This document shows, in pieces, positions 1 to 27,856 of a DNA stretch of 64,000 nt (position 1 is the first letter of the stretch; the number at the start of each line of letters is the position of its first letter). The notes beneath the pieces are model-generated. The model worked only from the letters and a program-made list of their open reading frames with translations, did no database searches and was not told the DNA's origin. The stretch covers positions 3,162,001 to 3,226,000 of the forward strand of contig JBLDXI010000029.1 in assembly GCA_047495785.1 (NCBI GenBank). The letters run 5' to 3'. Position numbers and translations under genes: made by a program. Origin of the DNA: Lepidodermella squamata. Its lineage: Eukaryota > Animalia > Gastrotricha.

Positions 1-69
1 TTTGGGGTACTTGATCATTTGCTCCATTTCAGCTATTTTCACCTTATCTTATAAGCCTCACTGCTTTAA

Positions 70-3000
70 CTAAAAGAGGGAATCGCTCCTTCTCATCAGC
101 TGCATGAAATCAATCATGAAATGGCCGTGCGCGAAAGTGTTGATGCCATCATCACTGACCCATCGCTTATCATCATAGGGACACAGGGCAACCTTGGAAC
201 TTTGCATCGTAACTAAGTTATGGGAGAATGATCGAATCTGATTGAAATTTATATTGACTACTTTCTTGTTCTTCACGCAATCCCTGTAATGGTCGAATGT
301 CAGCTTCGACTTCACGCCCTGCCGCTTAACTCCCTTCGCCTTTTTTATTTCATCTTTTTCTGAGTACAAAATTGCATAGACCTTGGATCGTGCTCCGGCG
401 AATTCTCGTATTACACGTCCCTTTGCTTCGTCTTTAAATACGCCGTTAGTTTTACAGTTGACAGTTGAGAATAGGAAGTGATCTTTAGGATAATCAGAGA
501 AATCGAATAGGTTTTCGATGGGTTTCATGTCTGTGTAAACGTCTCCAGTTGTGATATGGTAGCACAACGAATCTGTGTCTGTGAAAAGAAGCTTAGCTTT
601 GTCGCCGTACTTTCGTTTGATGACATTGTAGTGGAAGTCGTACATATGCACCTTGGACAAATCCAAAATGGCTGCTCCAACGATAATTGGTCGATCATAA
701 AAGATCTCAGTTTTTGCCATTTCCACGCTGAACAGCTCGTCACTTATCTTCTTAGCGTCCTTGAATGTTGGTTTGTTTACGAGTTTCTGAAGCTTCTTAG
801 GGCAAGTAACCAGTTTTAAGTCAATGCGATTCCGAACGTTCTCACAAGTTTTACCGAAAATGACGTTATTCATCAGTTTGAAAAACCCCTTCTCAAATTC
901 ATTGCTAGCCTCTTTTCGCTTTCGAGTATTGAATGCGATATAGGGCTCGGCCCAATTGCTCTGTTTGAACTTCAAAGCTCGGTGCACCTTTTTCAGAACT
1001 AGACCATTATCAAGAGCTTGCTGTAGCGCGCGATAGTGCATGACGTAATGTTTCTTGTCGTTCAGGTTTTGTGTTAGCTTTTTCACCTTCGCCGGCCTGT
1101 TAAGTCCTAATTGCTTATGCAGATCTTGCATGTGAGGGCTCGGTTCGCAAAGAATATGCTCTGGACAGAACGGATAGTCATTATGTGAGTCATGAAGCCT
1201 TGCAGGATAGTCGATATCAACCTCCAGCATGTACCCGAATTCGTCTTGGTCCCCAAGTGACTTCACAAAATCTTTGGTGATTGTTTCAGGGCCAATCCAT
1301 TCGAAGTCTTTCTGCGGTAACCACTGGGTCATCGCGAAAGAATAAAGAGCGTTGGCGTCCCAATACATTATAAACGATTTCGGAGCATTTGCGTCATAGT
1401 CTGTCATACCCTCGTTATTAGCCTTCGCGTACCTCCCAGGAATAACAGCTATACCGCCTCTTATGCCTTTTTCAACGAATTCAAGCATCTCCTTATTATC
1501 AAAGAGATCCAGTTCAACACGTGTGTATTTCAACATCGCGTCCCAACTTAACCCAGGTGCACCTAAATAATGCGCCGGGTCCAGATCGTAATAGCTTTTG
1601 CAGGTGTCTCGAAAACTGTCAAAACAATCTGCTAACAAGAGAACATCTGTTTTCAAATACAGGTCGTGGTAGTCTTTCAGAGTTTTGCAATTCAGTTTTG
1701 ACCAAACGGCTTGTGCGTGTTCATAATCCTCGTCAGATATAGAAGTTATTTCGATTTTGTTATCATCAAGCGAACAAGAATTTAGTCTGCATGAGAAATG
1801 TGACTTATTCGGTAGCTGAGTTTCATTCAGTTTGTCGAGGCTATCTATATAATCGTACGGATACACTCCCTTACGAAGTAGCAGGGATCTTTGTTCAGTT
1901 GTGAACTTAGAAAGCTGTTCATCAAAATGAGCGAATCTCTTTCCCGATTTTTTCAGATTACTGACTATCTGGTCCAGGCTTTCACTCATAAACTGAAACG
2001 TATCGATAAATCGCAGTTTGCCTATACTAAAACTTAAATACTTTTCCGAGGAATTAGCTATGACGTCAATCGTCAACAGGTTTGGTCTTTTCTTTTTGTC
2101 TTCTTTTTTGAAATTTGCAATCTTTTCTCCATTGATTTCGTTTACTACTTTTCCGGCTGCCTGCATTATCAAGTGCGAATCGTACCCACTCAGGTTATGA
2201 AAAACAACCGGGATGAAAGAATGCTTGAGATTCAAATTCAGATTGCAGGCATTATGAGCAGCTCCCCTGAAACGGCCTGTAAGATGGTCATGATCGCGGA
2301 CTTTATCGTCGCCCAAGGCGCTTCGGCAAACATGGCAGTGCTGTGCATTATCATAACTTTGTTGCTCTTGTTGAGATAACACCATGTCTTTATTGGTTTC
2401 CTGGATAAATGTCCTCAAACTGTATTGCTTTTTAATCAAGAATCTCAGGAACTGCTCCGCACAATTCGCCCCTTCAAACTGCCAATACTTCGAACGGATC
2501 TCAGGTACCTTACTAGCCAGTAAACATCCGAAGGAATTCGCAGCATGGTTCTGATAAATCAAGGACCTACCCTTTTGAACATCGGAATTCGTTAGCGTAG
2601 TCTCCGCATCACAATAGAAAACGAACGGTACTTCAAGCTGCTTGTAGTAATTTTTGAAAATAACTCGGCTACCTTTCGGAGGAAACTTCACTATGACGTT
2701 GCCATTTACTATGCAATTATGCTCTTTAAGCTTTATTTCGCTGTCGAATCCAGTCAGACACTGTAAGCACCAATGCTTTTTGTGCTGATCAGAACTAGGT
2801 AGCAACCGGCTCAAATTTTTTATCCAGCTGAAGTGTGCTATCACCTTAGCACCGTCTCTGAGAGTTGTTCGCAGAAGGTTAACTTCTTGGGCGTAAGGTT
2901 TCTTCGACGCGTAGTATGAAATAAGGCGATGACAACCATCTTTTTCTTTGTATTCAATCACGTTGATCTTTATCCTATTCTGATCTTCAAGATTTGAAAT

Positions 3001-4113
3001 ATCGTTCCACGAAATGGGAAACTTGATACCGTCATGTTTCAGTTCATTTTTAAATAACTTGTACTTGGATGTTTCCTGTGCATTTTTATCTACTGGATGC
3101 AAGCAAGCCAGCATGCTCCAGATTATGCATTCATCGTCGGTGTTTTTAACATTTATAACGGCCTTTTTATCAGCAATGAACTTCGGTGTTGGAATGTAAG
3201 ATCCTGTCCCTAACGGGCAGTAGCTGAAAGCACAAACACGGAGTCGCGAAATGTTTTGGAAGATCCATCCGGAGCCGCGCTGCTCGTAATTCTCAATGGC
3301 ACCACCAAGTTGAGAGAAGTGATGGTCTACAACGCTCCCTATGTCATCATATTTCCTGATAACTGGGGCAGCCTTTACAGCGGAAGACCATTTATGTTCT
3401 GATTTACTATTGTTCTCTTTTTTCCAATTCAAATCAGCGTTAAACACTATTTTGATGTTATCATTTTGCTCTAATTTTTCTTGCACGTAGTTAACAACTG
3501 ATTCCCTAGCCTTTTCGGTAAATAGATGGAAATCACTTCCTGAATTATGAGCTTCAATGTCTAACCTATAAAGGATATTCTTGAAATGCTCGGGATTTTT
3601 CTGCTCATTAAATTCCATATAATTGTTATCCTCAAGAGAGTTAATGCGCTCGATATAATTGTAGCCTTCGGCAATCAACTTGTTGTACGTTGGTCCACCC
3701 CATTTGATGAATTTCAAAGTCTTAGGATTTATGACATGATTTTCTTTCTGCCCTCTGAACACCATTTCACCAGCAGCATTCAAGAAATAGCCATCTTTAC
3801 GCAGCCTCTGATAGTCCTGGCTGCCCCTTTTTATCTTGCTCACACCTCGTTTCATAAGCTGATTATTCGCTTCGTCATAGAAAAACTCCTTTTCAAGTTT
3901 TTTGAAGTTGGACGAACCGATAGAAATATATTTGTTTGTGATAGGATTTAATACTGTTTTCCTTTGGGTTCTCTCGTAAGGCATCCCACCCTTCGTCCAA
4001 CGGTTATCTTTTAATTCAAAACCCTTCCTCAATAGCGCATTGTATGCTCGGCCACCAACCTTAATACGACGACCGTTAGGTCCCATTACATTGGTTTCAC
4101 TGTTGTCGGTCAT
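70..4113 (-). CDS. polB: Protein-primed family B DNA polymerase (pPolB) with inserted endonuclease VII-like Zn domain
   Basis: ExoI FYCDAET, ExoII FHNLSGYD, ExoIII YLKTDV; polymerase motifs YWDANALY, KLMNNVIFGK, FTDTDS; CHVC..VRDHDHLTGRFRGAAHNACNL EndoVII-like insert; 1347 aa uninterrupted. Confidence 0.97.
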   Translation of the reverse strand: MTDNSETNVMGPNGRRIKVGGRAYNALLRKGFELKDNRWTKGGMPYERTQRKTVLNPITNKYISIGSSNFKKLEKEFFYDEANNQLMKRGVSKIKRGSQDYQRLRKDGYFLNAAGEMVFRGQKENHVINPKTLKFIKWGGPTYNKLIAEGYNYIERINSLEDNNYMEFNEQKNPEHFKNILYRLDIEAHNSGSDFHLFTEKARESVVNYVQEKLEQNDNIKIVFNADLNWKKENNSKSEHKWSSAVKAAPVIRKYDDIGSVVDHHFSQLGGAIENYEQRGSGWIFQNISRLRVCAFSYCPLGTGSYIPTPKFIADKKAVINVKNTDDECIIWSMLACLHPVDKNAQETSKYKLFKNELKHDGIKFPISWNDISNLEDQNRIKINVIEYKEKDGCHRLISYYASKKPYAQEVNLLRTTLRDGAKVIAHFSWIKNLSRLLPSSDQHKKHWCLQCLTGFDSEIKLKEHNCIVNGNVIVKFPPKGSRVIFKNYYKQLEVPFVFYCDAETTLTNSDVQKGRSLIYQNHAANSFGCLLASKVPEIRSKYWQFEGANCAEQFLRFLIKKQYSLRTFIQETNKDMVLSQQEQQSYDNAQHCHVCRSALGDDKVRDHDHLTGRFRGAAHNACNLNLNLKHSFIPVVFHNLSGYDSHLIMQAAGKVVNEINGEKIANFKKEDKKKRPNLLTIDVIANSSEKYLSFSIGKLRFIDTFQFMSESLDQIVSNLKKSGKRFAHFDEQLSKFTTEQRSLLLRKGVYPYDYIDSLDKLNETQLPNKSHFSCRLNSCSLDDNKIEITSISDEDYEHAQAVWSKLNCKTLKDYHDLYLKTDVLLLADCFDSFRDTCKSYYDLDPAHYLGAPGLSWDAMLKYTRVELDLFDNKEMLEFVEKGIRGGIAVIPGRYAKANNEGMTDYDANAPKSFIMYWDANALYSFAMTQWLPQKDFEWIGPETITKDFVKSLGDQDEFGYMLEVDIDYPARLHDSHNDYPFCPEHILCEPSPHMQDLHKQLGLNRPAKVKKLTQNLNDKKHYVMHYRALQQALDNGLVLKKVHRALKFKQSNWAEPYIAFNTRKRKEASNEFEKGFFKLMNNVIFGKTCENVRNRIDLKLVTCPKKLQKLVNKPTFKDAKKISDELFSVEMAKTEIFYDRPIIVGAAILDLSKVHMYDFHYNVIKRKYGDKAKLLFTDTDSLCYHITTGDVYTDMKPIENLFDFSDYPKDHFLFSTVNCKTNGVFKDEAKGRVIREFAGARSKVYAILYSEKDEIKKAKGVKRQGVKSKLTFDHYRDCVKNKKVVNINFNQIRSFSHNLVTMQSSKVALCPYDDKRWVSDDGINTFAHGHFMIDFMQLMRRSDSLF

Positions 4114-4205
4114 GATTGTATATATTATACTAAGAAAATAATCTTTAAGTAATTTTCCGCAATTTAAGAAAATCTTATATAGTTTTTTTCTAATGATAAT
4201 ATATA

Positions 4206-4505
4206 ATGACTACAAACCCGATTAAGCAAAGAGGTCGCCCGAAGAAATATCTGACTGAAGAAGAACGCGAGACAGGCTATCGTGATCAGCATCGTATAGC
4301 TTGCAAAAACTACTGGAAGAAAACTATGGAAGTAGTTAGAGCAAGTCGTGGACAGGGAAAATGTCATGAAGTAACTTCACAAATGGAAGGAGCGATCACA
4401 AGTGACAGAATGTGTGAGCCTAAGTCTGAAAACCTTACGACGAAGGATATAGAGGAAATTATAAATCAAATGTTGGCAACAAAACTGCAAAAATTGCTCT
4501 CATAG
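4206..4505 (+). CDS. Small basic protein with AT-hook motif
   Basis: KQRGRPKK AT-hook core; TCTA at 4189-4192, 13 nt before the ATG. Confidence 0.65.
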   Translation: MTTNPIKQRGRPKKYLTEEERETGYRDQHRIACKNYWKKTMEVVRASRGQGKCHEVTSQMEGAITSDRMCEPKSENLTTKDIEEIINQMLATKLQKLLS

Positions 4506-4530
4506 GCTTCACTGTGCGGTCATGATTGAA

Positions 4531-5952
4531 CTAATCCAACAAGTTATCAGCGGGCTCCCAAGTCGGCTTATCATATCCTGCCCATTTGACGTAAACCATT
4601 TCTTTACCTTTAACTTTCTTCCTTCTCAAAATCTTTTCAACCCGGTAAAGGTTTTCTTGCTGTTGGGAAGATTTCTGCAATTCCTGTTCGTAAAAGCTAC
4701 CTACTACTGGTTCACCATCTAGAGCCTCGATTTTATAGGTTCTAGGAATGGTTTCGTTAACCTTGACGACTTTAAGAAGCTCTTCACTCCATGAAGGGTG
4801 GAAACCTTTTTCAAAGGTCTCTTTCAGTCGGCTGATCCTCACTATGTCACCAACAGCGAATTTGGGCTTAAGTAACTTTTTTTCCTCTGATTCCGCGTAC
4901 AAATTGTTGTGAACGATGTGTCTATTCTTTGGATCTATCGCCTGAGTTGGCGTCATTCGAATCGATCTGTGCTTAGTAAGGTTGTACTCTCGAACTAGGT
5001 CATCTAATATTGCAACCCAATTACGTGAGTTGTTAAGTGTAAAGCGTTTCCACATTCTAGTTTTAAGAGTCCTGTTAAACCTCTCGATCATAGGGTTATG
5101 AAAATTTTCATAGGTAGAGTACCGATTCACCTTATTTGCTTTCAACCATTTAGTGAAGATTGAATTATAAAATTCACTGCCCTCATCGACCCAAATATTT
5201 TTAGGCTTTCGTCGGCTTGTCTTGATAACTGATGAGAAGGCATCGAAAACACTTTTTGCGTCTTTTAATTTCAGTGGGACGGCCCACGCATATCTGCTGA
5301 AGCAGCATATCACGGTCAAAATGTACTTATAGCCATTATTGTCATCGGTCAAGTCGTTCATGAAGACAATGTCCATGCCCCATGTGTCGTCAACGTTATG
5401 CACATAAACGCGACGTCTTGGAAACCGCTTTCTTGCGGGTTTATGAAGCTCCTCAGCTAATGTTTCAAACTTCATTTTGCTAACTGTTTCTGATCGCGGC
5501 GCCTCTTGTTTTGTCTTTCGCTTCGGAATTTGTTGCGAGTAGCTAACAGGTTTCCTATCTCGAAGAGCCATGCCTTTCCCTTGCAGATGGTCAGCGATTC
5601 CACCTTCAACGAACGTTTTGTAGACAAATGCTGCCATAGCCCTCTCATAACCACTTTTCGATCGATCACTAGCAATCCTGAGTGCCTTGTCTGCAAGAAT
5701 TCTATCGCTAACGGTGCGTCGCTCTCTGTCTTTGTAAAAGTGATAAGCAGCGTCATGTTCTCTGGCTGCCTCGTCCAACTCATTTATACCTCTGTAGCCC
5801 TGGCTCATTCTTTGAACAAAATGTGTTCCTGGGCCAGCGTAGCTATATGACTGCTTATTGTTATAAGACCCTCCAGGAACGGTTTCTCCTTGAACGGGAT
5901 AACTCGGTAAATGGAATTCCACCGGCAAATTGTTAATTATTCTGTCAAACAT
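4531..5952 (-). CDS. Fusion of parvovirus-type phospholipase A2 domain, retroviral-like (rve) integrase and chromodomain
   Basis: N-terminal YAGPGT Ca-loop and LDEAAREHDAAY...D catalytic motif; integrase DDE in WGMDIV / WVDEGSEF / MIERFNRTLK; C-terminal YRVEKIL...VKWAGYDKPTWEP chromodomain. Confidence 0.93.
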   Translation of the reverse strand: MFDRIINNLPVEFHLPSYPVQGETVPGGSYNNKQSYSYAGPGTHFVQRMSQGYRGINELDEAAREHDAAYHFYKDRERRTVSDRILADKALRIASDRSKSGYERAMAAFVYKTFVEGGIADHLQGKGMALRDRKPVSYSQQIPKRKTKQEAPRSETVSKMKFETLAEELHKPARKRFPRRRVYVHNVDDTWGMDIVFMNDLTDDNNGYKYILTVICCFSRYAWAVPLKLKDAKSVFDAFSSVIKTSRRKPKNIWVDEGSEFYNSIFTKWLKANKVNRYSTYENFHNPMIERFNRTLKTRMWKRFTLNNSRNWVAILDDLVREYNLTKHRSIRMTPTQAIDPKNRHIVHNNLYAESEEKKLLKPKFAVGDIVRISRLKETFEKGFHPSWSEELLKVVKVNETIPRTYKIEALDGEPVVGSFYEQELQKSSQQQENLYRVEKILRRKKVKGKEMVYVKWAGYDKPTWEPADNLLD

Positions 5953-5988
5953 TATTCATTTGGACTTGAAATTCTAAATAAAGAGCAA

Positions 5989-6681
5989 ATGATCAATTGG
6001 GACAGCATCGTTCAATCACAACGACAGGAGTACAAAAATGGATCTCCCTTTTTCCCTCAGCATCCTTCTCGATGTCTTATTATTGGACCGTCCGGGACCG
6101 GAAAGACTTCAGATCTGTTGACAATACTGCATAACTCCTTTTTTCACAAGATCTACTTATATTGTAAAACTCTTGATGAGGACAAGTACGAGTACCTGAT
6201 TAAGCTTCAGAAACAGAAGGAAGACATTCTTTCAAAGCAAGGAATTTCAGTAAACCTTGTTCACTCTTCCAATGACATTTCTGAAGTCATGCCTCTTGAA
6301 GGCCTAGATAAAAGTTACCAGCATGCTTATATATTCGACGATATTTGCATGGAGCAAAAGAGGCTGCAAGAAACACATATCGGTGCAATGTGGATAAGAT
6401 GCCGAAAGTACAACGCGTCAGCTTTTTATCTTTCGCAGTCATATTTTAAGATCCCAAAGACAATTAGGGATAATGCCGATTTTGTTGTGCTGAAGAAGCT
6501 GGCAGACAACAGGGAGCTGAGCATAATTCATCGAATATACGCCCCCTCAATTAAGACAACTGAATTTATTGCCAAGTACAATGAAGCCGTTAGCCTTCCT
6601 CATGGTTCGTTTATCATTGACGGTCAAAGCAAGCCACAGTGTCTTCGACTTAGAGCTAATTACGCTTCAATCTTCGCCTAA
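5989..6681 (+). CDS. A32/FtsK-like DNA packaging ATPase
   Basis: Walker A GPSGTGKT, Walker B YIFDD, RCRKYN and LSQSYFKIPKTIRDN motifs. ATG 5989 preferred over 5911 because it avoids overlap with the integrase and has TCTA 12 nt upstream. Confidence 0.93.
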   Translation: MINWDSIVQSQRQEYKNGSPFFPQHPSRCLIIGPSGTGKTSDLLTILHNSFFHKIYLYCKTLDEDKYEYLIKLQKQKEDILSKQGISVNLVHSSNDISEVMPLEGLDKSYQHAYIFDDICMEQKRLQETHIGAMWIRCRKYNASAFYLSQSYFKIPKTIRDNADFVVLKKLADNRELSIIHRIYAPSIKTTEFIAKYNEAVSLPHGSFIIDGQSKPQCLRLRANYASIFA

Positions 6682-6881
6682 TCATTTTTAACTATTAAAA
6701 ATTAGTTTAAATTATCTATCAAACAGTTTGAATTATCTTGGCTTCACTGATTATCTCCAGTATAAGATGAGTTCAACTGAGCGTTCAATGGGCGATCATT
6801 AGGCGTTCAACAAGCGATCATGTGGCTAACGAGGAGCGACCGCTGGGCGAACAAGGAGCGATTTATTCTAGCCAGAGTGAT

Positions 6882-7925
6882 ATGCCGCTACGCGAATTAA
6901 CAACTGATGAACAAATTCGAATTCTTGAAGATTTAGATAAGCAGGAGAAGATGTACGACCGACACTTGGCCATGGTTAAAGGTGATGTATATGCTTTAAA
7001 GTATAAGCATAGTGTAAATGTTGAGCCCGATCCCCTTACAGCTTTGCAAGAGACTTACAGGCAGATGCCAACTGTGGAGGCAATAAGATCCGTTGCCAAG
7101 GAGCTCAAACAAACAGCAAAGAGAAGCTTACCAACAGCTAATCACCCGCATCACCTAGAAGCGGTATTACCAAAGGCGGAACCGACAACTGAAGAGGCGA
7201 AGGAATCAGTGGAGAACATAGTTTTGAAGAGACATAACTTCCCCACAGCTAAAGAAATTGAAGAGGCTGGGGCTGACCCCGCGCATATTATTGTATCTCT
7301 TTCGCACTATAACAAAAATGTTTTGGGCTCCCAACTAGCTCAGCTCACTAAAAAAGGATACAAAGACTCTCCACAGTATCAATCGATTCAAAATGATATA
7401 CAGATTTTGAAAAACTTCAAGAACTCGTTGCTTGAGACATTTGAGAATCAAAGGGTGCTACTTGAGAAAACTGGTACAGGTATATCCAACAATTATTTGA
7501 AGATTGGTAGGTTTTACGCCAGAAAAGACGACATAAGGCGAGGGGTTTTAAGGATTCGCAAGAAGAATAAAGGTAAAGTGCAAGGTTTAGCCGATATAGA
7601 CATAAGTGATGGTGTCAAACGATTGCTCTTGAAAAGGTACAATCCGAAGGTGAACTTTTCTAAGCAAGACTATGATCAATACCAAAAAATTTGTGAACTG
7701 ACTGGATATCGACCAAAACCCCATTCTAAAATCTGGAACAGAATTTACGTGACTGATGTTGTTGATGCCCAAAAGAGGCTCGTAAACGCGATTGGTGAAA
7801 TCAGAGCGGGAAACAATAACGCTGAAATATATAACGAAGTTGTGAGTATTGCAGATTTTCTTTTGAAGAACAATAGACTGACCAAAGCTGAATACGAAAA
7901 TCTAATAACAGTGGTAAATGGGTGA
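6882..7925 (+). CDS. Conserved Polinton protein of unknown function
   Basis: Long ORF between ATPase and penton; C-terminal RLxxxxGExxAGNNN..NEV..I.D.L motif recalled from Polinton proteins; first ATG at 6882 with TCTA 11 nt upstream. Confidence 0.7.
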   Translation: MPLRELTTDEQIRILEDLDKQEKMYDRHLAMVKGDVYALKYKHSVNVEPDPLTALQETYRQMPTVEAIRSVAKELKQTAKRSLPTANHPHHLEAVLPKAEPTTEEAKESVENIVLKRHNFPTAKEIEEAGADPAHIIVSLSHYNKNVLGSQLAQLTKKGYKDSPQYQSIQNDIQILKNFKNSLLETFENQRVLLEKTGTGISNNYLKIGRFYARKDDIRRGVLRIRKKNKGKVQGLADIDISDGVKRLLLKRYNPKVNFSKQDYDQYQKICELTGYRPKPHSKIWNRIYVTDVVDAQKRLVNAIGEIRAGNNNAEIYNEVVSIADFLLKNNRLTKAEYENLITVVNG

Positions 7926-8658
7926 TCCAATATTTCTGCCTTTGGAATATTACTGCAATAACAGGTCGGACGCCAGCAACGTCATCGATCGTTACCTAAA
8001 TGATAAGATCGATTTCACAAAGCGCAGCATCGCCGTTTCATACATTCACTTTTACGATGTTTTTTATAATGTATCACAGGCTTCAGGTAATAGTAAGCTC
8101 AGATATAAAGATCCAGAAGATGCGACTTTTGAAATTCGATTTCCTGATGGAACCTTCACTTTTCGTGATTATAACAATTATATTCACTTTGTTATGAAAG
8201 GAAACGGCCATTTCAAGACCATCGACGGCTCAGAAGTTTACGGCATAAGCTTATCTGTCAATACTGTTCTGAATAAACTGAGCTTTCGAATTCAACCAGG
8301 TTACGCTCTTCTGATCGAGCATGATGCTACGTCTGAATTTCTAGGTGTAGACAAAGGCGAATTCCGAGCAGATTTTAATGGGCAGCATATTCCTAACATC
8401 ACGATGTCAAATGACTCAATGTTTGTTCACTGTAACGTCGTCAATAATAGCCTAGTCCCGGAGGTTAGTGATGTCATCTTCACCTGTCCGATTAACAAAA
8501 ATTTCGGCCAACACGTTAACATTGTTCCAAATGAGAAACGTTACTTGTCCTGTACGAATGCTAATACACAAAACATAAAAATAACGCTCACCACCCAGGC
8601 TGGTGCACCACTGGAGATGACTGAAAGAAAATGGGGTATTGGTCTTGATATTCGCTAG
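7918..8658 (+). CDS. Minor capsid protein (penton-like, single jelly-roll)
   Basis: FPDGTFTFRDYNNYI and MFVHCNVV...SDVIF...FGQHVNIVP motifs typical of Polinton PX/penton; beta-rich; position in the morphogenetic block. Confidence 0.85.
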   Translation: MGDPIFLPLEYYCNNRSDASNVIDRYLNDKIDFTKRSIAVSYIHFYDVFYNVSQASGNSKLRYKDPEDATFEIRFPDGTFTFRDYNNYIHFVMKGNGHFKTIDGSEVYGISLSVNTVLNKLSFRIQPGYALLIEHDATSEFLGVDKGEFRADFNGQHIPNITMSNDSMFVHCNVVNNSLVPEVSDVIFTCPINKNFGQHVNIVPNEKRYLSCTNANTQNIKITLTTQAGAPLEMTERKWGIGLDIR

Positions 8659-8681
8659 CTTTTTCTAGTTACTTTGTTATA

Positions 8682-8981
8682 ATGAAAAATCGCAGAACAA
8701 AAGCATATGTCGTAGGACGCGGTTACGTAGACATCGCAAGAAATATGCTCGACAAATTGACTGGTGTCTTACCGGTTCAGACTTTAGCCAAATCAGCTCT
8801 ATCAAAGGCAGCGGAAGTTGCCGGTGACAAAATAGGTGCCTATGCCGCAAATAAACTTGCAGACAAAGTGATGCCGACAAAGCCAGCTGAGCGCTCTATT
8901 CAGGCTATTGAGGAGCTTGAGAAGAAAATCAAAAGAGACATCGATAATTACACCGGAACAGGCTTTAAGCTGATACGCTAA
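8682..8981 (+). CDS. Small Ala/Lys-rich amphipathic protein, putative virion core or membrane-active protein
   Basis: Lies between penton and MCP; GxG sites VVGRG and YTGTG flank an amphipathic A/K-rich helix; TCTA 14 nt upstream. Confidence 0.65.
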   Translation: MKNRRTKAYVVGRGYVDIARNMLDKLTGVLPVQTLAKSALSKAAEVAGDKIGAYAANKLADKVMPTKPAERSIQAIEELEKKIKRDIDNYTGTGFKLIR

Positions 8982-9000
8982 ATATCTAATGCCTATTTAA

Positions 9001-10374
9001 ATGCTTCAATCCGAAATAGTGAACTGTCTCTTTGAGAGCCCGACCATAGATGATCGGCAGTTCGAAAGGAAAAGCTGGGCCGAGGTTTGTGCAACAAGTT
9101 TTATACAGGATCAGCCCTCTCAGCCTTCTCGCATTATCTTTTCTACATATAACTTGCGTGAGTTGTTTTTATTGCCGAGGGAAGCCTATATCCAGTTGAC
9201 TGTTGAGTTCCGACGAAACGATAGTCAGGCTTTCAAAGCAACTGACAAGTACGCAATTAGGAACCATGTTATATCCATGTTTGAAACAGTTGAAGTGCAA
9301 GTAGGTGATAATGATAACCAGGTAGAGCAAACACGTTATAACGAACACTGGAGCTCGTTGCTGGGCGTTATTCACTGGTCTGATGACTATGCGCGAAGTC
9401 TTGGGGAAGAATCTCTTTTCGCCAGAGACTACCCAGCCCATGTAAATTATGAAATGACTCCTGAAGTTACAGCAGAAAGTTTCGATCCTGCGAAGAACAG
9501 CTGCAACGAGGGACTACTCTTGAGATCTTTGTATGTTAAGGATCATAAGATGGTTGTCACACTTTACTTAAGGGACATTCCTTTCTTCCAAAATTATTTT
9601 GGGATGTGGACCAAGGCGAGATTTCGTGTGATATTAACACCAAATTACACCAAACCCATAGTCGCAGCCATAGGGAAAAACGATGATTTGCCGGAAGGGA
9701 TGCATTTCCAGATTTCGTCAGCTTATATGTTTATTCCGGAAGTCACATTGATGCCTGAAACTAGAGCACGCATTTTGAAAGCCTTCAATACGGGTCTCAC
9801 GAAACTTTACAAATGGCAATCGCTAGAATGCTTTCAGAGCCCCCAGTTTGCTGTGAATAGTTCATCGGTACAATGGACAATCACATCTGAGATGAAAAAA
9901 CCAAGCTGGCTATATATTGTATTCTTGCAAGACTTCTCAGACGCAGAGTATCAAACAAAACTGACACAAATTTACACTCAGTGGAATATATTCAGCTACT
10001 CTCTCATGATAAACAATAAGGAGGCGTTTGCCGAGGCCAACATGAACTTTTCCCGCTTCAACGCTCACCGGCTCTATAACTATATTAAGGAAAACATGAA
10101 CCATTTCAATGATCGTGAAAGCACGAACACTGGTAGTCAGCTTAGTTACCTTGATTTTTGTCGATTTTACCGTTTCCTGGCATTCAATCTGGAAAGTGTA
10201 GATGCCGGTGCTATATATAATTCACGCGGTGACCAAAGCGTGAGCGTCACATTTAAAGCTAGAATCAGCCCTGTCGATAAGCCATTAGTTATGTTTTGTT
10301 TCATTTTTAGAGAAAAAGAAATAGGCTTCAACTACAAAGACGACAAGCTCGAGATAAGCCTTAACATGCTGTGA
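9001..10374 (+). CDS. Major capsid protein (double jelly-roll, hexon-like)
   Basis: 457 aa beta-rich ORF with LLPREAYIQL, SMFETVEVQV, KPSWLYIVF and YRFLAFNL segments resembling Polinton PY/MCP; syntenic position. Confidence 0.87.
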   Translation: MLQSEIVNCLFESPTIDDRQFERKSWAEVCATSFIQDQPSQPSRIIFSTYNLRELFLLPREAYIQLTVEFRRNDSQAFKATDKYAIRNHVISMFETVEVQVGDNDNQVEQTRYNEHWSSLLGVIHWSDDYARSLGEESLFARDYPAHVNYEMTPEVTAESFDPAKNSCNEGLLLRSLYVKDHKMVVTLYLRDIPFFQNYFGMWTKARFRVILTPNYTKPIVAAIGKNDDLPEGMHFQISSAYMFIPEVTLMPETRARILKAFNTGLTKLYKWQSLECFQSPQFAVNSSSVQWTITSEMKKPSWLYIVFLQDFSDAEYQTKLTQIYTQWNIFSYSLMINNKEAFAEANMNFSRFNAHRLYNYIKENMNHFNDRESTNTGSQLSYLDFCRFYRFLAFNLESVDAGAIYNSRGDQSVSVTFKARISPVDKPLVMFCFIFREKEIGFNYKDDKLEISLNML

Positions 10375-10395
10375 ATTTTCTAACTTAGAATAATA

Positions 10396-10974
10396 ATGAC
10401 TAAATACATTCCATTCGACATTAAACTAACAGAGACCCAGAGAAGAGCATTTCAAAAACCAGGCCAAGTTGTCTTGCGTTTCACAATTGATCAGCTTCTT
10501 GCAGATCCAAATGGTTCCAAGTTGTTGTTGACGCAAAGGCAGATAGATAAAGTAATGAAGAGCAAACAAAGGATGAAAGGGCTTGATATTAAACTGAGCA
10601 AAACTCAGCTCCGGAAGAATCAGTCTGGTGGGTTCCTGTTACCAGCGCTTGCCGCAGCTTCTAAATTTATAGCACCTGTAGCTGTTGCAGCGCTGAGCGG
10701 CCTTGCCAGTTCCCTCGCCAGTACAGCAGCTGACAAGATCGTAGGCAAAGGCGTGTCGCTGACAATACCAAAAGAGGATTTAAATGAACTGCAAAAGGCG
10801 GTTTCGCTTCTGGAATCCCGACAAATTGTGCCTGCTGGCAGTAGTAAGGCAATTAAAAGCCATATAGAGCAACAGGGTGGAGCTTTTATCTTGCCGCTTG
10901 TATCAAGCTTGCTGGGTGCATTCCTTCCGACCTTATTCGGAAAAGGGGTTTACATGCCGTGGGAAAAAAACTGA
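10396..10974 (+). CDS. Adenovirus pX/mu-like core protein with two GG-F/A hydrophobic segments
   Basis: QSGGFLLPALAAA and QQGGAFILPLVSSLLG resemble the adenoviral pX GGFLPAL segment; IVGKG and LFGKG adenain-type sites. Confidence 0.7.
   Translation: MTKYIPFDIKLTETQRRAFQKPGQVVLRFTIDQLLADPNGSKLLLTQRQIDKVMKSKQRMKGLDIKLSKTQLRKNQSGGFLLPALAAASKFIAPVAVAALSGLASSLASTAADKIVGKGVSLTIPKEDLNELQKAVSLLESRQIVPAGSSKAIKSHIEQQGGAFILPLVSSLLGAFLPTLFGKGVYMPWEKN
10965..10974 (+). promoter_or_regulatory. Candidate -1 ribosomal frameshift slippery site A_AAA_AAC followed by TGA
   Basis: Frame-0 codons GAA AAA AAC TGA; the heptamer fits X_XXY_YYZ and the -1 frame is the protease. Confidence 0.7.
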
Positions 10975-11417
10975 TAAATACCGGGTTTTATCCCTTATCC
11001 AATCTTGAGATAACCGAAACTTTGAAGAGGCTCCTCGGAAAAGACTTCAAGGGCTGTTATGCTCGGGACGACCTTCCTGCTACACTTCAACGAGGATATT
11101 ACGTCATTAACCTGGACGATAAAGTTAACCGCGGAAGTCATTGGGTCTCAATGGCTGTGAAGTCGACTGAAATAATCTACTTCGATAGCTTCGGGTTTAT
11201 ATGCCCTAATGAGATCATTAAGCGTCGCGGCAAACGAGTAATTTGGTATTCCACACATGATATACAACATCCTGGCTCTGTTGCATGTGGCTTCTATGCC
11301 ATTTACTTTCTAAGAGAATTAGGTAAAGGTAGGGATAAGTTAGCTATTTTGCTAGACTTCAATAACACCGGGTCACCGCACAATGATGACTTACTGAAAA
11401 ATCTATTGTTAAGCTAG
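10966..11417 (+). CDS. Adenain-like cysteine protease, probably expressed by -1 frameshift from the upstream ORF
   Basis: Catalytic set GSHWV (His), YFDSFG (Asp), IQ..SVACG (Gln, Cys). No in-frame ATG between the TAA at 10854 and the catalytic His. Confidence 0.9.
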
Positions 11418-11419
11418 AT

Positions 11420-11599
11420 ATGTATTGCCTGCATTGTAGGAAAAACACTAAATCAGTGAATGAGCAGCAATTAGCCACTCGTAATAACCGAGCTCTCATG
11501 ACAGGATCTTGTACACTCTGCGGTATGACAAAGTATAAATTCATAAGAATGTTAAAGAGAAACGCCGTCGTAGATAAAAAGGATGCAAGCGTCCGTTGA
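11420..11599 (+). CDS. 59-aa zinc-ribbon protein (DUF5679-like), below the ORF-track cutoff
   Basis: MYCLHCRKNT...RNNRALMTGSCTLCGMTKYKFI; two CxxC pairs; TCTA 14 nt upstream. Confidence 0.75.
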   Translation: MYCLHCRKNTKSVNEQQLATRNNRALMTGSCTLCGMTKYKFIRMLKRNAVVDKKDASVR

Positions 11600-12089
11600 A
11601 GATGAATTGAAGAGACTGATGGATAATTTTGAGAATTCTAAATCAGTGAGAAAGACATTTTCTACCATGCCTTACGTGTATTGCGATGCGTGTGCCACAG
11701 AACTTTTGCTTGACGAAAGGGCGAATTTCAACGTATGCCCAAACTGCGGTTTATGTTATCCATACTGTGAGCACTCCCCGCCATTCAAATTAGTACCTTA
11801 CAAACGAAAATGGCATTTAATGACTGTAATTAAAAAGCGCGGTATAGAAATGCTACCTCCTCAACTTGAGAGGCTGATGTCGAGCTTTATCAAGTTTGAC
11901 TCGGGCTATGCAGAACTCTTTCCCGATCAAAATATGATGCACCTTGACTTTGTTATCAAAGCTCTGGCTCAGGAACATGGATACGACCTTGTGGCACAGA
12001 GCGTACACGTGAAATCGGTTAACGATAAGACGCTGAGGCAATGGCGGAATAAGTATAATCTAGTCATCGCTCATTATGAGATCGAATGA
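11583..12089 (+). CDS. VLTF3-like (poxvirus A2/NCLDV late transcription factor) protein
   Basis: CDAC-x13-CPNCG zinc ribbon followed by YKRKWHL and NMMHLDFVIKAL, resembling the YKR..HF and NFL.Y.YVL motifs of VLTF3. Confidence 0.65.
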   Translation: MQASVEDELKRLMDNFENSKSVRKTFSTMPYVYCDACATELLLDERANFNVCPNCGLCYPYCEHSPPFKLVPYKRKWHLMTVIKKRGIEMLPPQLERLMSSFIKFDSGYAELFPDQNMMHLDFVIKALAQEHGYDLVAQSVHVKSVNDKTLRQWRNKYNLVIAHYEIE

Positions 12090-12735
12090 AATATTCATTC
12101 CAAGTGAATGGTTTGAAAATGCACGACAGGCAGCAATTTATTTGAGGGCAGACGGCAGTACTCCATTCGCGGCAAACCTAAACGCGAATAGCTACTGCAT
12201 CGAAAATTTGGGCGGCCCCGTTTTCGACAACGATGCTGTTAGTAAAAATTGGGTTGAGCGAAGTTGTTTAATGATTCAATCCGATCAGACTGTTGACTTT
12301 AAAAATGCTAGGCTCACGAACATCCATCCACCAATAAATCCAAACGATGGCGCGATTCGGGCTTCCAGATTGATATGCTCTGGCAAGGTTTCTCTTGCGC
12401 GCGAGAATAAGCTAAGTTTTGATAACATGATTTCCGGAATGCCTGAAGTAAGCGATAGCTTAGTGTTTCGGGCAGACGTAACAGCCAGAGTGGAAATGTG
12501 GTTCCGGCTGGACGACAACAGAGCCACATCCTTCACCCTTGATTTCTTCAAAAACAACGGTAACTTGTTCTCGAAATACTTCAACTATAACAATGTTAAT
12601 TTGGAGAGCAGCAATGAATACTGTTCCTTTATAGAGCAATTCCGATTGAATGATAGCTTAACGGTTATTGCAGCAGCTGACGAAAGCATACAACTGTCAT
12701 ACATTTTGATTATTTCTAACCTAAAGAATACGTGA
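12076..12735 (+). CDS. Putative virion fibre/spike protein
   Basis: YLRADGSTPFAANLNAN...IENLGGPVFDNDAVSKNWV and a second LTNIHPPINPNDGA repeat resemble tail-fibre shaft repeats; beta-rich C-terminal head. Confidence 0.55.
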   Translation: MRSNEIFIPSEWFENARQAAIYLRADGSTPFAANLNANSYCIENLGGPVFDNDAVSKNWVERSCLMIQSDQTVDFKNARLTNIHPPINPNDGAIRASRLICSGKVSLARENKLSFDNMISGMPEVSDSLVFRADVTARVEMWFRLDDNRATSFTLDFFKNNGNLFSKYFNYNNVNLESSNEYCSFIEQFRLNDSLTVIAAADESIQLSYILIISNLKNT

Positions 12736-12749
12736 TACATATATTCAGA

Positions 12750-13331
12750 ATGAATGACAACCAGCTAAAAACAGTAGAAAGTATTTACCCCACTGCTCCC
12801 AGACTACAGATGTCTTCTACTCAAGAGTTCAGGCTTGCTGAGCTCCGGCGCCTAAATGATGTTTTCAACACAGAAATATCGAAAAGAAAGAAGCTTTATA
12901 ATAGATATTCCCGTTTTTCGTCAATTTGCAAAGCTACTATTCATGGAATAACGGGCGGCACAACATCGCTTGCGATTGGTGGAATCGCACTACTGTCACT
13001 TGGCCTCCCAACCGGTATCATGTTGGAGATTACTGCAGCTTCGGGCGGCATGGTCATACTTGTTCTCAACCTGCTTGACTTAAAGTTCGAAAGGAAAGCC
13101 GAAAAACATGAAAGAATCGCCACTCTTGCCATGTCGAAAGCCAACTCAATAGGCGACATGATCAAAACAGCCCTGGAAGATAACCACATCAGTGACACTG
13201 AGTATCAGGTTATTATGAGAGAAAACGAGAAATTCCATGATATGAAAAAGTTGCTCCAGAAGAGTTTAAATTGTGATCGCACGCAAATATTTCTTGAGGA
13301 ACTCAAAAAGCATGGTGTGAACGTCCCTTGA
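12750..13331 (+). CDS. Two-TM helical membrane protein of Polinton type
   Basis: Central Gly-rich hydrophobic hairpin flanked by FRLAEL...KLYNRY and KHERIATLAMSKANSI...ALEDNHISDTEY. Confidence 0.65.
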   Translation: MNDNQLKTVESIYPTAPRLQMSSTQEFRLAELRRLNDVFNTEISKRKKLYNRYSRFSSICKATIHGITGGTTSLAIGGIALLSLGLPTGIMLEITAASGGMVILVLNLLDLKFERKAEKHERIATLAMSKANSIGDMIKTALEDNHISDTEYQVIMRENEKFHDMKKLLQKSLNCDRTQIFLEELKKHGVNVP

Positions 13332-13332
13332 G

Positions 13333-13587
13333 CTAGCGAAAAGGCGAGTAAAATATCACACGTTTCTTTGGTGCTCTAACTGCTTTAGCATGATTGCCTT
13401 TGATTTTCGAAGGCTTTTTAATTCTATCCCTATTCACAAAATACCCTAGCAACGCGGCGATTACACTCAATGCAACAAAAATGCGTTGAAGCTGGGTGTT
13501 CGTCCTTAAGCAGTCGATCTGAAGTTCTCTAACAAGCACCTTAATATATGAGATTATTTCTTCTTGGGCACTCGAGTAAGTATTCAT
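13333..13587 (-). CDS. Small single-TM protein
   Basis: ATG-initiated, tightly packed ORF; IFVALSVIAALLGYFV followed by a basic tail. Confidence 0.5.
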   Translation of the reverse strand: MNTYSSAQEEIISYIKVLVRELQIDCLRTNTQLQRIFVALSVIAALLGYFVNRDRIKKPSKIKGNHAKAVRAPKKRVIFYSPFR

Positions 13588-13605
13588 TAAGTATTAAAAC
13601 GATTT

Positions 13606-13941
13606 TTATTTTTCTCGTCGCGCCCTCATTTCAGCTATGAATTTCTCTATATCTGACTTCCTTTTCTGTCGCCGTTCAGACAGCTCAGCTTTGCGCCTCT
13701 GGCTCTGTAACTTACGGTCGTTATCTTCTTTTTCCCTTGCAGTCAGCAAATCGCTGTATTTCTGTTCAATGACAGCCTTCTCGTTCTCCAAAGTCTTAAT
13801 ACGGGTATTTGAGGACTGTCTCTTGAGCGAGGAATACTGATCGCTGATAATCTCAACTTCCTGCTTCAGTTTGTCAATATCTTGATCCTTCTCGTCGACG
13901 ATTTCATCGACCTCTGTGTATGAAAGAAATCCTTTCTCCAT
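13606..13941 (-). CDS. Coiled-coil protein
   Basis: E/K/Q/R-rich heptads; tightly packed with neighbours. Confidence 0.55.
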   Translation of the reverse strand: MEKGFLSYTEVDEIVDEKDQDIDKLKQEVEIISDQYSSLKRQSSNTRIKTLENEKAVIEQKYSDLLTAREKEDNDRKLQSQRRKAELSERRQKRKSDIEKFIAEMRARREK

Positions 13942-13948
13942 GATTATA

Positions 13949-14206
13949 TTATTTACCGAGAAATCTTCTTCTTAGCAGGTAAGCTTCCTTGCCGCCGACA
14001 TGAGAGACATCCTTTGGAATCAGACTAACGTTGATGCCACCGCCCTTCAGCGATGAGACGCGTTGTTGTTTGCCTAAATGATAGTAAATCGTGCCTCTGC
14101 TGAGTCCCACTTCAGCTGCGATTTTATCTACTGTCTTAGAGCTATTCTGATATTCATGGATTGCTTGGCTGATTTTGTCGGGATTTATTACCTTGCGACG
14201 AAGCAT
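13949..14206 (-). CDS. Helix-turn-helix DNA-binding protein
   Basis: TVDKIAAEVGLSRGTIYYHL HTH signature. Confidence 0.7.
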   Translation of the reverse strand: MLRRKVINPDKISQAIHEYQNSSKTVDKIAAEVGLSRGTIYYHLGKQQRVSSLKGGGINVSLIPKDVSHVGGKEAYLLRRRFLGK

Positions 14207-14865
14207 CTTATATTTATTTGAGAAATTAAAATATTTCGATATTTCGATGTTCCATTATTCAAATGTTTGAACGTTCAGTCATATATATGTTGAAATTAAC
14301 AGCGTTGTCGATTTCCTTTTCAAGTGTTCGAACATTTCAAAATTAAAACATTAGAAGGTTCGAATAATTGCTTTATCGAGAAGTTTAGCTTTGAACATCG
14401 CTGGATCAGTAAATAATTATTCTGAATCAGATGAAGGCATGTGAAGTTCTAGGCAAGAACAGATACTTGACAACAGTGGCAGCAGTAAGTTCCGATTTCA
14501 ATTCTTCGTCGCCAACAATTTCTCCACAGACGAGACATACCGCCTCATTGCAAAAGAGGTATATCGAATGTAGGCATATCGAAGCATTCTTCAGTACTTT
14601 GAGATTCAGTTATCAGGATGCTCTCTTGAGTAGTCTCGTCAGGTCCTCGCATCAGTTAGAGAAGACGGATTTCTCTCCAAGAGCAAAAAATGCAACCAAT
14701 TGCAAGAGTAAGCGTGCTTAGGGTGATTACGAATGCAGTGCACAAACGAGCTGACGTTAAATAATTTATCCTCTGCCCTCGATCTAAATCGGTCGATATT
14801 ATCCCGGCAACGAGAGAAAACATGTAGCTGAATCAGCTGGCAGTTTTCTATATACGAAAGTTTTT

Positions 14866-14979
14866 ATGGGATTAGAGTGCCCGTTTTGTAAGCACAGTGA
14901 ATCTACCGTTGAATTAACTGACTGCCTTTCCTGTCCTTACTGCGGCAGAAAATATCCTGTTTCTCCGTTTCAAGTTTGA
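14866..14979 (+). CDS. 37-aa zinc-ribbon microprotein
   Basis: MGLECPFCKHSESTVELTDCLSCPYCGRKYPVSPFQV; TCTA 15 nt upstream. Confidence 0.55.
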   Translation: MGLECPFCKHSESTVELTDCLSCPYCGRKYPVSPFQV

Positions 14980-15037
14980 AAAGCGTTTGAAAATCGTCGA
15001 TATTGCCTTCATAGTTTTCCCATATACAGGTTACGAA

Positions 15038-15169
15038 ATGAATCAGCAACAACCATGCGAACCTTGCGGACCCTGGGGGCCTGGTGGACCTTATGATGGA
15101 GCCCCGAGGACTTGTAGTGGAGCCTACGGACCTGATGGACCTTGTGAACCATGCGGGCCTACTCGTTGA
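15038..15169 (+). CDS. 43-aa Gly/Pro/Cys-rich micro-ORF
   Basis: PCEPCGP at both ends with GPx triplets between; could instead be the antisense shadow of a decayed collagen-like repeat. Confidence 0.3.
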   Translation: MNQQQPCEPCGPWGPGGPYDGAPRTCSGAYGPDGPCEPCGPTR

Positions 15170-15192
15170 TAAAATACGACCAATATTTGACT

Positions 15193-15260
15193 TTTGCCAT
15201 TAATATATTTAAGGAAAATTAATATCTTTGCCATTAAAATATTTAAGAGAAATAAATATC
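15193..15260. repeat. Tandem 34-bp AT-rich repeat, two copies
   Basis: TTTGCCATTAATATATTTAAGGAAAATTAATATC / TTTGCCATTAAAATATTTAAGAGAAATAAATATC. Confidence 0.8.
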
Positions 15261-15918
15261 TGACCGGTCGGAAACCTTGCTACTTACAATGAGACGGCAT
15301 GTCATAGCTTTCCGGTATTTTCTTGGGTATTATTACACAGCACCTCTTCAGTCGCAGTATATCGTTTTATTTGCGTTATGATTATGACTCTTAAGCTAAT
15401 GTTTCATAATGGGGCCTGAAGTAGAGTTAGATTTGAATATTCCAACTGGATAAAAGCGTATATCTAACAACTTATAATTAATGTTCAATGTTCAAATATG
15501 ACTGTAATGATAGGTACAGGCCTTAAGCATATGGATCCAGGCTTGATCCTGTTTCTCGGTTCCCGTTTCAACAGTTCCATTCTCAGCGATGCCCAACAGT
15601 ATTGCCACAGTCATTGCAAACTACCGTGCCCATTATGTCATCCTCCACAATATGTTTGTCTCCAGTATGTTCGCAGTCGTTTCCAGGCATGGTGAACTTG
15701 GTAATTTTTCAAATTAATTCTAAAGGAAACAGTTGACAGCATGTAAAGGGGCTATGATTCGGCAAATTCGGCATAAAATTTCACCGCGAGAGCACACATA
15801 TAGAAGAATCGAACTACCAACCTTGTTCACACACTGGCTCGTCATACATTATGCGTCATCATCGATTTTGAGCAGTGGGTTCGATATAGAGATGACGCAT
15901 TGCAGCAACCGTTAAATA

Positions 15919-16071
15919 ATGAATCAGCGAGAAACAATAGTTTTTATTGACGCGAATTCATTTTATCGGTCTCCCTGCTGCGCCTATATCGAATTCTCTG
16001 CTGAAATACTTAACCGCCTGGACTGTCCTTACTGTCCTAAAAAGGTTCTCGACTCTTCAGGTAAGTATTAA
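15919..16071 (+). CDS. 50-aa zinc-ribbon microprotein
   Basis: ...YRSPCCAYIEF...LDCPYCPKKV. Confidence 0.45.
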   Translation: MNQRETIVFIDANSFYRSPCCAYIEFSAEILNRLDCPYCPKKVLDSSGKY

Positions 16072-16119
16072 AATACCTCAGCCTTTTCCTGGATAACTAT
16101 TTCGAAAACAGCTTGCAAT

Positions 16120-16218
16120 ATGCATGATTGCGGTTGTGATGATCCGGATATTATAAACGATGGAACATTTTATGTATGCCAAAACTGTGGCGCGATTGTT
16201 GGGCAGGTCTACGTATGA
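16120..16218 (+). CDS. 32-aa TFIIB-type zinc-ribbon microprotein
   Basis: MHDCGCDDPDIINDGTFYVCQNCGAIVGQVYV, followed by AATAAA at 16221 and again near 16242. Confidence 0.5.
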   Translation: MHDCGCDDPDIINDGTFYVCQNCGAIVGQVYV

Positions 16219-25968: not shown

Positions 25969-26029
25969 GAATATGGATTCCAGTAAGCGAAGTACCGGGG
26001 GAATGGGGTGCCGTACCCACAGATCAAAC

Positions 26030-26301
26030 AGTCACCGTGAAAAGCCTCAAAAAACATTAAGTCTCAAAAAAGCCTCAAAAGACACATAAATGTCTAAACA
26101 GAACACGAAAGACCAACATCCCCCAAATGCTCTCCAAATACCAAATAGACCACAAAAAAATCGAAATTACCAAAAAGCCCCCGAAAATGCCAAAAAACCA
26201 AATAGACCACAAAATAGACCACCAGGAAGACCTAAAAAGACCAGAAAGACCACAAAAGATCAAAGAAAACAAATGACCCTTTGGTCATAAGTTACGGACT
26301 G
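26030..26301. repeat. A/C-rich low-complexity tandem repeat (AAAAGACC-like units), possibly a small non-autonomous element
   Basis: Repeated aaagcc/aaagacc/aatagacc units; weak CAGTC...GACTG ends. Confidence 0.45.
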
Positions 26302-27743: not shown

Positions 27744-27856
27744 CTGCGCATTAAGGTGGGTTTATTTGAATTGCGAACGTAAATAACAGGTAATCATAAT
27801 AAAAATACCGGGCGCGATGATGCATACAGGTAGTTTTATGTTTTTTTGCTGCAACA

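Follow-up and report, generated by a model that had tools for sequence, protein, structure and literature searches.

In a window of 64,000 nucleotides from the gastrotrich Lepidodermella squamata (assembly GCA_047495785.1, contig JBLDXI010000029.1, positions 3,162,001 to 3,226,000), a Maverick/Polinton element with intact open reading frames (ORFs) occupies positions 1 to ~16,430 according to the ORF listing, and the short motif TCT(A), which stands just ahead of the start codon in most of its genes, is a genuine and conserved signal resembling a promoter, now defined more precisely than when it was first described. We put the probability that the TCT(A) signal is a promoter at roughly 85%. 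Its fixed spacing, its strand specificity, a second element at a fixed distance and a bias toward the capsid module support a virus-type promoter for each gene. The sites found in the window are as follows, where the gap is the number of nucleotides between the motif and the start codon and offsets such as +13 are counted from the beginning of TCT.

4132 to 4135, minus strand: TCTT variant, gap 18 before the DNA polymerase gene (PolB), with TATA at +13
4189 to 4192, plus strand: TCTA, gap 13 before an AT-hook-like ORF of 99 amino acids (aa), 4206 to 4505 (AT_hook, E=0.038, weak)
5969 to 5966, minus strand: TCAA variant, gap 13 before the integrase fusion
5973 to 5976, plus strand: TCTA, gap 12 before the A32 ATPase
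6867 to 6870, plus strand: TCTA, gap 11 before a 347-aa ORF
7901 to 7904, plus strand: TCTA, gap 13, inside the 347-aa ORF and before a penton-like ORF
8664 to 8667, plus strand: TCTA, gap 14 before a 99-aa ORF, 8682 to 8981
8985 to 8988, plus strand: TCTA, gap 12 before the major capsid protein, with TAAATG at +13
10379 to 10382, plus strand: TCTA, gap 13 before a 192-aa core-protein-like ORF
11402 to 11405, plus strand: TCTA, gap 14, inside the protease frame and before a DUF5679 ORF
12059 to 12062, plus strand: TCTA, gap 13, inside the VLTF3-like ORF and before a 219-aa ORF
12715 to 12718, plus strand: TCTA, gap 13 before the GTG at 12732, with TA at +14
13958 to 13961, minus strand: TCTC variant, gap 16 before a 111-aa ORF (13941), with TATA at +13
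14220 to 14223, minus strand: TCTC variant, gap 13 before a helix-turn-helix (HTH) ORF (14206)
14847 to 14850, plus strand: TCTA, gap 15 before a 37-aa ORF, 14866 to 14979, without pyrimidine-A (YA) at +13/+14

The eleven TCTA sites of the preliminary description, and the variants that it reported before the integrase and HTH genes, lie exactly where it had placed them and at the gaps that it gave, whereas the TCTT before PolB and the TCTC before the 111-aa ORF had been overlooked. The four TCTAs that it located within upstream coding frames are read there as AAT CTA three times and as TCT AAC once. Nine of the ten genes behind the ATG-linked TCTAs encode at least 59 aa, the ORF at 14866 only 37. 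The GTG start that had been invoked after the site at 12715 was rejected as unnecessary, because a transcription start at +15 would make 12750, which opens a 193-aa ORF, the first ATG downstream. The promoters of PolB and of the AT-hook-like ORF form a 23-nt, 83% inverted repeat and are near mirror images of each other.

Position alone makes TCTA special in the element, since the tetramer is equally dense in the element and in the host flank (3.04 per kb; 54 on the plus strand and 46 on the minus strand of positions 1–16450). At gaps of 11–15 nt it precedes 10 of 24 candidate starts, a list compiled with the finding already seen, compared with 8 of 563 other ATGs of the element (Fisher's test, 6e-11); among other ATGs in A/T-rich surroundings the count is 2 of 122, and among host-side ATGs 19 of 1477. 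An automatic ORF caller yielded 7 starts out of 17 with TCTA at gaps of 10–17, which was matched in 0/1000 shuffles. Enrichment over shuffled and host sequence, on which the preliminary description had staked its claim, was found: no C/G-containing tetramer reached 10 in any 5-wide window in 2000 dinucleotide shuffles (an A/T-only tetramer did so in 3/2000), and the motif preceded none of 33 host-side ATG ORFs, a weak control as most of these are not true gene starts. The 25 bases preceding the starts with TCTA include 15–22 A or T. A chance origin of the positioning was rejected, and the positional signal of TCTA in the element is confirmed.

The signal is larger than TCTA and can be written as TCT-N10-TA(TA). 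In the related loci introduced below, taken together, the offset of TATA from TCT peaks at +13 in every class of TCT-to-ATG gap from 12 to 26 nt (35/118, 45/90, 40/76, 29/59 and 24/74), and therefore TCT and TATA are tied to each other and not to the start codon. Of 1351 starts in the relatives, 914 have a TATA in the 13 nt directly preceding them, compared with 383 in shuffles. In the window, with the +13 offset taken from the relatives and two offsets allowed and picked after inspection, 11 of the 13 TCTs linked to starts have YA at +13/+14, compared with only 136 of 574 other TCTs (p=9e-6), or 74 of 270 when those in A/T-rich surroundings are considered, and the A falls 0–6 nt before the start codon. 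A TATA box further upstream was rejected, as the relatives have no TATA peak 25–35 nt upstream of TCT. The layout fits a core plus initiator such as that of nucleocytovirus late promoters.

Alignments of the ATPase and PolB provided 150 partial loci, more distant than the element's own clade; 50 short or duplicate ones were set aside, which left 100 that are non-redundant and have 8 ORFs or more. Scans with the capsid alignment, a single PolB, a single ATPase or a PLA2 query, and likewise scans of a contig collection and a phage collection, found no close relative with DNA. In a set of 621 non-redundant upstream regions drawn from 63 loci, TCTN is most frequent at gaps 12 and 13 (40 and 49, compared with 2–12 at gaps 20–41), with TCTC, TCTA and TCTT all enriched, and TCT before starts is enriched in 52 of the 100 loci at p<=0.01 and in 62 at p<=0.05. 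Loci with a ~600-aa capsid, a homolog of the Maverick type (HH 99.7%), make up the largest of the classified groups, and the capsid is often accompanied by a protease. These capsids have no match to solved virophage capsids. When the window element was tested for a virophage-type capsid, profiles A1 and A7 matched no solved PDB capsid at E<=1. Judging from the capsid and the protease, these most frequent carriers of the motif are probably Gosseviruses, which are described in the accessible part of a recent report (10.64898/2026.06.19.733378) as protist-infecting Polintoviricetes; unlike the window element, most Gosseviruses lack pPolB, and their hosts are protists. In this group TCTN occurs in the sense orientation at gaps of 10–17 before 245 of 731 starts, compared with 56 at gaps of 28–35, and its reverse complement yields 59 and 96, which means that the signal is sense-strand only. 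The ten Maverick-type loci are patchy (pooled, 27/109 compared with 10.3 expected), with a strong motif in L001 (9/18), and TCTA stands at gaps of 10–17 before 4 of 5 genes of L067, a Polinton fragment of animal type. A Ser-Asn pair in the N-terminal extension of P0008 would place TCTA at gap 14 if the serine codon were TCT, which is the sole and weak indication of conservation within the element's own clade.

The bias toward the capsid module is seen in the relatives as 36/98 for the ATPase, 23/51 for penton-like, 24/46 for capsid and 14/55 for protease genes, with the motif rare before pPolB (1/8), primase-helicase-like (0/9) and GIY-YIG-like (2/42) genes; a recombinase-like cluster carries it in 10 of 25, and several of these class labels, that of the recombinase-like cluster included, are putative. 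As a mark of "late" genes the motif is a tendency only. Most motif-bearing relatives are more A/T-rich than the window element. The motif had been presented as a property of an animal element, and it is indeed present here, but it is not special to that element, being widespread in aquatic relatives. In L073, a contig from IMG/VR, another repeated upstream motif (a T-run, ATATTGCTAATATA) precedes about eight genes. L147 and L148 are the nearest to the window in gene content, and many of their starts read TATAAAAATG or TAATAAAAAATG, with TCT weak or absent.

The late motif of Cafeteria roenbergensis virus (CroV) is spaced 11–20 nt from the start. Its resemblance, and that of the mavirus motif, to the window motif had been pointed out in the preliminary description and agrees with the accessible parts of the published accounts, in which the promoters of CroV, ChlorV and mavirus (type 4 of the endogenous mavirus-like elements, EMALEs) have the same TCTA with A/T-rich flanks near the start (PMC8547959, PMC13196603, PMC5294985) and, like the window motif, favor capsid-module genes. 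The differences are that the motif is carried here by an animal Maverick, which has a capsid of Polinton type and is no virophage, that the fourth base varies in the relatives of the window element, and that those parts do not mention a second element at +13 for CroV or mavirus. According to the part of PMC5294985 available to us, the late promoters of poxviruses and African swine fever virus combine a core with an initiator, TAAAT or TATA; they resemble the window signal in having two parts, a fixed spacing and an initiator at or beside the ATG. Both window capsid genes start TAAATG, in agreement with the TAAAT initiator, whereas the core is TCT in place of a T-run and the element has no RNA polymerase gene. 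Gezel-14T (PgVV) and the entomopoxvirus-associated Polinton-like viruses (PLVs) are, so far as the accessible text goes, small elements that encode a capsid and either depend on a large DNA virus or are associated with one; Gezel-14T differs in using an early AAAATTGA motif, and the words "promoter" and "motif" are absent from the available text of the entomopoxvirus-associated PLV paper (PMC11296320).

We infer a compact two-part late promoter of nucleocytovirus type, in which TCT(A) would be the core element and pyrimidine-A or TATA would follow ~13 nt on. Transcription would begin at the A, at +14/+15, to give leaders of 0–6 nt; every gene would have its own mRNA, with the protease translated from the core-protein mRNA via a −1 frameshift. 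The transcription machinery would be supplied by a co-infecting large DNA virus, and the VLTF3-like protein would be at most an accessory factor. Reading by the machinery of such a helper virus is the explanation that we favor tentatively, at slightly under even odds. The motif is common to the animal element and to aquatic relatives whose hosts are presumably unrelated, and because the signal is found in both while a factor of their own was not found, the reader might be supplied in trans. In the accessible parts of the relevant papers, CroV has TCTA as its late motif and reactivated only those EMALEs that carry TCTA, which are of the mavirus type (PMC8547959, PMC10945749), and insect Maverick-related elements were found in entomopoxvirus occlusion bodies (PMC11296320). 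Maverick-type elements may, in other words, borrow giant virus transcription machinery. The element is not a virophage by taxonomy, having a Polinton-type PF21738 capsid, but it may work like one, and a virophage-like lifestyle is plausible and testable.

Several observations weigh against this explanation. The only viruses for which TCTA has been reported, in the part of PMC13196603 that is available, are CroV and ChlorV, which infect protists. Since TCTC and TCTT are also used in the relatives, the match to CroV amounts to only 3–4 bases in A/T-rich DNA. No enrichment at p<=0.05 was found in 38 of the 100 loci, four Maverick-type loci (L073, L074, L146 and L148) are not significant for the motif, and TATA is eroded in 8 of the 11 window TCTA sites. 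The one contig binned in a giant-virus metagenome-assembled genome (L081/L083) carries the motif in only 1 of 23 cases and was rejected as support. The VLTF3-like gene of the element lacks the motif, as an autonomous early-to-late cascade predicts. Gossevirus capsid genes occur in transcriptomes of cultured chrysophytes, according to the accessible text of PMC7805220, which fits helper-free transcription, and some PLVs replicate without a helper, as stated in the available part of PMC10945749.

The last of these points would suit an autonomous element whose two-part promoter, the same as described above, is read in the nucleus by host Pol II together with factors of the element (VLTF3-like, HTH and zinc-ribbon proteins), the main rival, though one that we regard as rather unlikely. 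The 168-aa ORF is probably VLTF3-like, given an Atlas score of 0.95 with 27 of 30 matches in Pox_VLTF3 clusters and 209 of 256 features, and a match to the A2L zinc ribbon (PF08792, E=0.0086) that is below the cut-off; moreover, PolB, integrase and HTH, which have variants of the motif, could form an early class together with the motif-less VLTF3-like gene. To our knowledge, nucleocytoviruses without an RNA polymerase of their own retain VLTF3. On the other hand, canonical Pol II promoters do not place a core 13 nt ahead of the start, PF04947 (Pox_VLTF3) gives no match to the 168-aa protein, its sequence homologs were not found, and its predicted fold is poor (pLDDT 46.7). An insensitive search of 1884 ORFs from the 150 partial loci found no VLTF3-like homolog (best E=0.95), and Pfam gave no VLTF3 match in 199 proteins (146 + 53) from 19 partial loci, an absence that is not proven, given that the loci are incomplete and that Pox_VLTF3 fails to match even the window protein. 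No RNA polymerase gene was found in the relatives scanned. Since no VLTF3-like gene was found in the relatives, that of the window is probably not the general reader of the motif. The preliminary description had offered the element's own VLTF3-like factor as one possible driver; the identity of the ORF probably stands, while its role as driver is weakened by the lack of a homolog among the 1884 ORFs. The virus-type late programme that it proposed is supported as far as the per-gene promoter is concerned, but "late" is a tendency only and both proposed readers are hypothetical.

Host Pol II might also act alone, with TCTA as a degenerate, YYANW-like initiator at the start of a 12–16-nt leader. 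CTAAT, CTAGT and CTATT do match what we take to be a loose initiator consensus, but this improbable reading leaves the TATA fixed at +13 unexplained, and no TATA peak lies at −25 to −35 and only 19 of 1477 host-side ATGs, a weak control, have TCTA. We hold it similarly improbable that the promoter is a relic or passenger, functional in an ancestor that infected protists, and that the element arrived recently in the animal and is not so transcribed there. The closest relatives, with capsids 51–72% identical, come from metagenome or read assemblies, and the element is represented by a single copy with a single end; against a relic, exact TCTA is retained at 11 sites in host-like GC (~41%) although motif-bearing relatives are mostly A/T-richer, the animal-type fragment L067 shows the same TCTA before its genes, and the ORFs are intact. 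Very improbable is a signal at the RNA level, whether branch point, trans-splice acceptor or translation enhancer, even though TCTAAC and TCTAAT resemble what we assume branch points to look like and TTTCAG acceptors are plentiful in the host flank. A host splice or trans-splice signal had been named in advance as a reading that would undo the promoter, and it is disfavored: AG is missing before the ATG at 2 of 10 sites and YAG at 4 of 10, the position of AG is variable, the TCT-TATA spacing is independent of the ATG, and TCTC and TCTT are used as well. A splice signal was rejected on these grounds, as was an origin of CTAA/CTAG from stop codons, because an upstream stop codon lies at none of the sites. 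To return to helper-driven transcription, one extension of it, which is itself rather doubtful, is that TCT-N10-TATA is the ancestral late promoter of Polintoviricetes, identical to the signal read by the polymerase of CroV, and that motif-keeping animal Mavericks are integrated satellites of animal-infecting nucleocytoviruses and not autonomous transposons of the nucleus.

A promoter motif for Mavericks or Gosseviruses was not found in the literature searched, from which subscription papers and supplements were largely absent, and a search for a Polinton promoter motif together with TCTA led to the EMALE paper only; as far as searched, the motif is new for Mavericks. It bears on the mode of Maverick transcription and on the question of their autonomy. 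No Maverick virion has been seen, according to the accessible part of 10.64898/2026.06.19.733378, and the virophage-first hypothesis, as outlined in the available text of PMC10328495, derives Mavericks from virophages that share promoters with giant viruses. With a start base predicted gene by gene, Maverick transcription becomes testable, and the motif provides a sequence tag with which Mavericks and PLVs can be sorted by promoter type and helper viruses searched for. If host Pol II reads the motif, it would still be a new, compact type of promoter with nearly leaderless mRNAs.

The element's left end lies outside the window, so that one copy with one end is covered; a second copy was not found by blastn, and the GC content (~41%) is like that of the host. 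Its principal features are the following.

70 to 4113, minus strand: probable pPolB-type DNA polymerase, 1347 aa, 32–45% identical to polymerases of Polinton-like contigs, with full-length homologs there
4531 to 5952, minus strand: fusion of a PLA2-like domain, rve integrase (PF00665, E=1.2e-11) and chromo domain
5989 (true start) to 6681 (stop), plus strand: A32 packaging ATPase (PF04665, E=3e-9)
6882 to 7925, plus strand: 347-aa ORF
7918 to 8658, plus strand: penton-like ORF (putative), TAAATG start context
8682 to 8981, plus strand: 99-aa ORF
9001 to 10374, plus strand: major capsid protein, TAAATG start
10396 to 10974, plus strand: 192-aa core-protein-like ORF (putative)
10965 to 10971, plus strand: in-frame slippery heptamer A_AAA_AAC, at the end of the 192-aa ORF
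11420 to 11599, plus strand: DUF5679 ORF (E=1e-13)
11583 to 12089, plus strand: VLTF3-like ORF, 168 aa, motif absent upstream
12076 to 12735, plus strand: 219-aa ORF
from 12750, plus strand: 193-aa ORF
14866 to 14979, plus strand: 37-aa zinc-finger-like ORF, weak Pfam matches
16362 to 16416, plus strand: strong hairpin close to the element's likely right end (−35 kcal/mol, z −6.1, 0/200 shuffles)

The protease and the VLTF3-like gene had been described as lacking the motif, and both do, but the protease has an explanation of its own. Its frame (to 11417) is open in −1 relative to the core-protein-like ORF and has no ATG before the conserved N-terminal motif. L074 and L146 have proteases without that ATG and in-frame heptamers (T_TTT_TTA at 11804 in L074 and A_AAA_AAA at 7414–7423 in L146), and L073 has A_AAA_AAC (14380) plus an ATG, whereas nearly all of the remaining proteases, in a set of 63 examined, have an ATG of their own. 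A frameshift flag in L148 was rejected owing to a pattern mismatch. Downstream of the slippery site, RNA folding is not significant (z 0.47 and −0.60), and a stimulatory structure was not found there. On these sequence grounds a programmed −1 frameshift is likely in four Maverick-type elements (that of the window, L073, L074 and L146), and the protease probably lacks a promoter motif because it is reached in this way. Such a frameshift may already be in print, as PMC11071296 contains the terms "adintovirus", "ribosomal frameshift" and "slippery".

With Maverick/Polinton group 2 (alpha-type adintovirus module) of Polintoviricetes the element shares the rve integrase, the A32 ATPase, a capsid of the double jelly-roll (DJR) type, a C5-like protease, a PLA2 domain and DUF5679, a gene set common to L147 and L148; it differs in its distinct capsid clade, the PLA2-integrase fusion and the VLTF3-like gene. 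The capsid is of the Polinton DJR type, PF21738 being detected in 29 of 39 aligned members though not in the window protein on its own, and it stands in a clade apart, with 3 representatives below E 1e-30. The protease matches Peptidase_C5 at E=2.7e-4, barely under the curated cut-off, and 62 related proteases were obtained by tblastn. Most close homologs of the ATPase begin MINW/FD, and the window ATPase clusters with Polinton-type ATPases with a support of 90 (FastTree; long branches flagged). Pfam gives no polymerase match for PolB, only the Endonuclease VII insert, and we take the 1347-aa ORF to be a polymerase from its catalytic motifs. The polymerases of the window (residues 588–626) and of L001 both contain this Endonuclease VII-like zinc domain as an insertion. 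The PLA2-like domain, N-terminal to the integrase and chromo domains in the window ORF, is encoded by a separate gene in L074, L143 and L147.

AATAAA is scarce: of 21 gene ends, 5 have it within 200 nt, and poly(A) signals do not discriminate. Tiny CxxC ORFs cluster at 14866–16218 (14866, 15919 and 16120 on the plus strand, 15690 on the minus strand); 14899–14942 and 15991–16034 are 70% alike, and a 34-nt tandem repeat lies at 15193–15260. The hairpin at 16362–16416 opens with AGTAGT, which we take to be a Polinton terminus. The flank is animal-like, with an AMOP domain, a homolog of prolyl 3-hydroxylase 1 (E=1.6e-18) and frequent TTTCAG acceptors. It also contains a MULE transposase with a SWIM finger, spread across several frames (36295–38955, minus strand), and, at 24526–28831 and 39546–60361, several long multi-membrane ORFs together with short single-pass membrane-like genes. 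Pfam gave no match for the multi-membrane ORF at 24526–25968, the only one scanned, and the short membrane-like genes at 39546 and 44202 are clearly paralogous.

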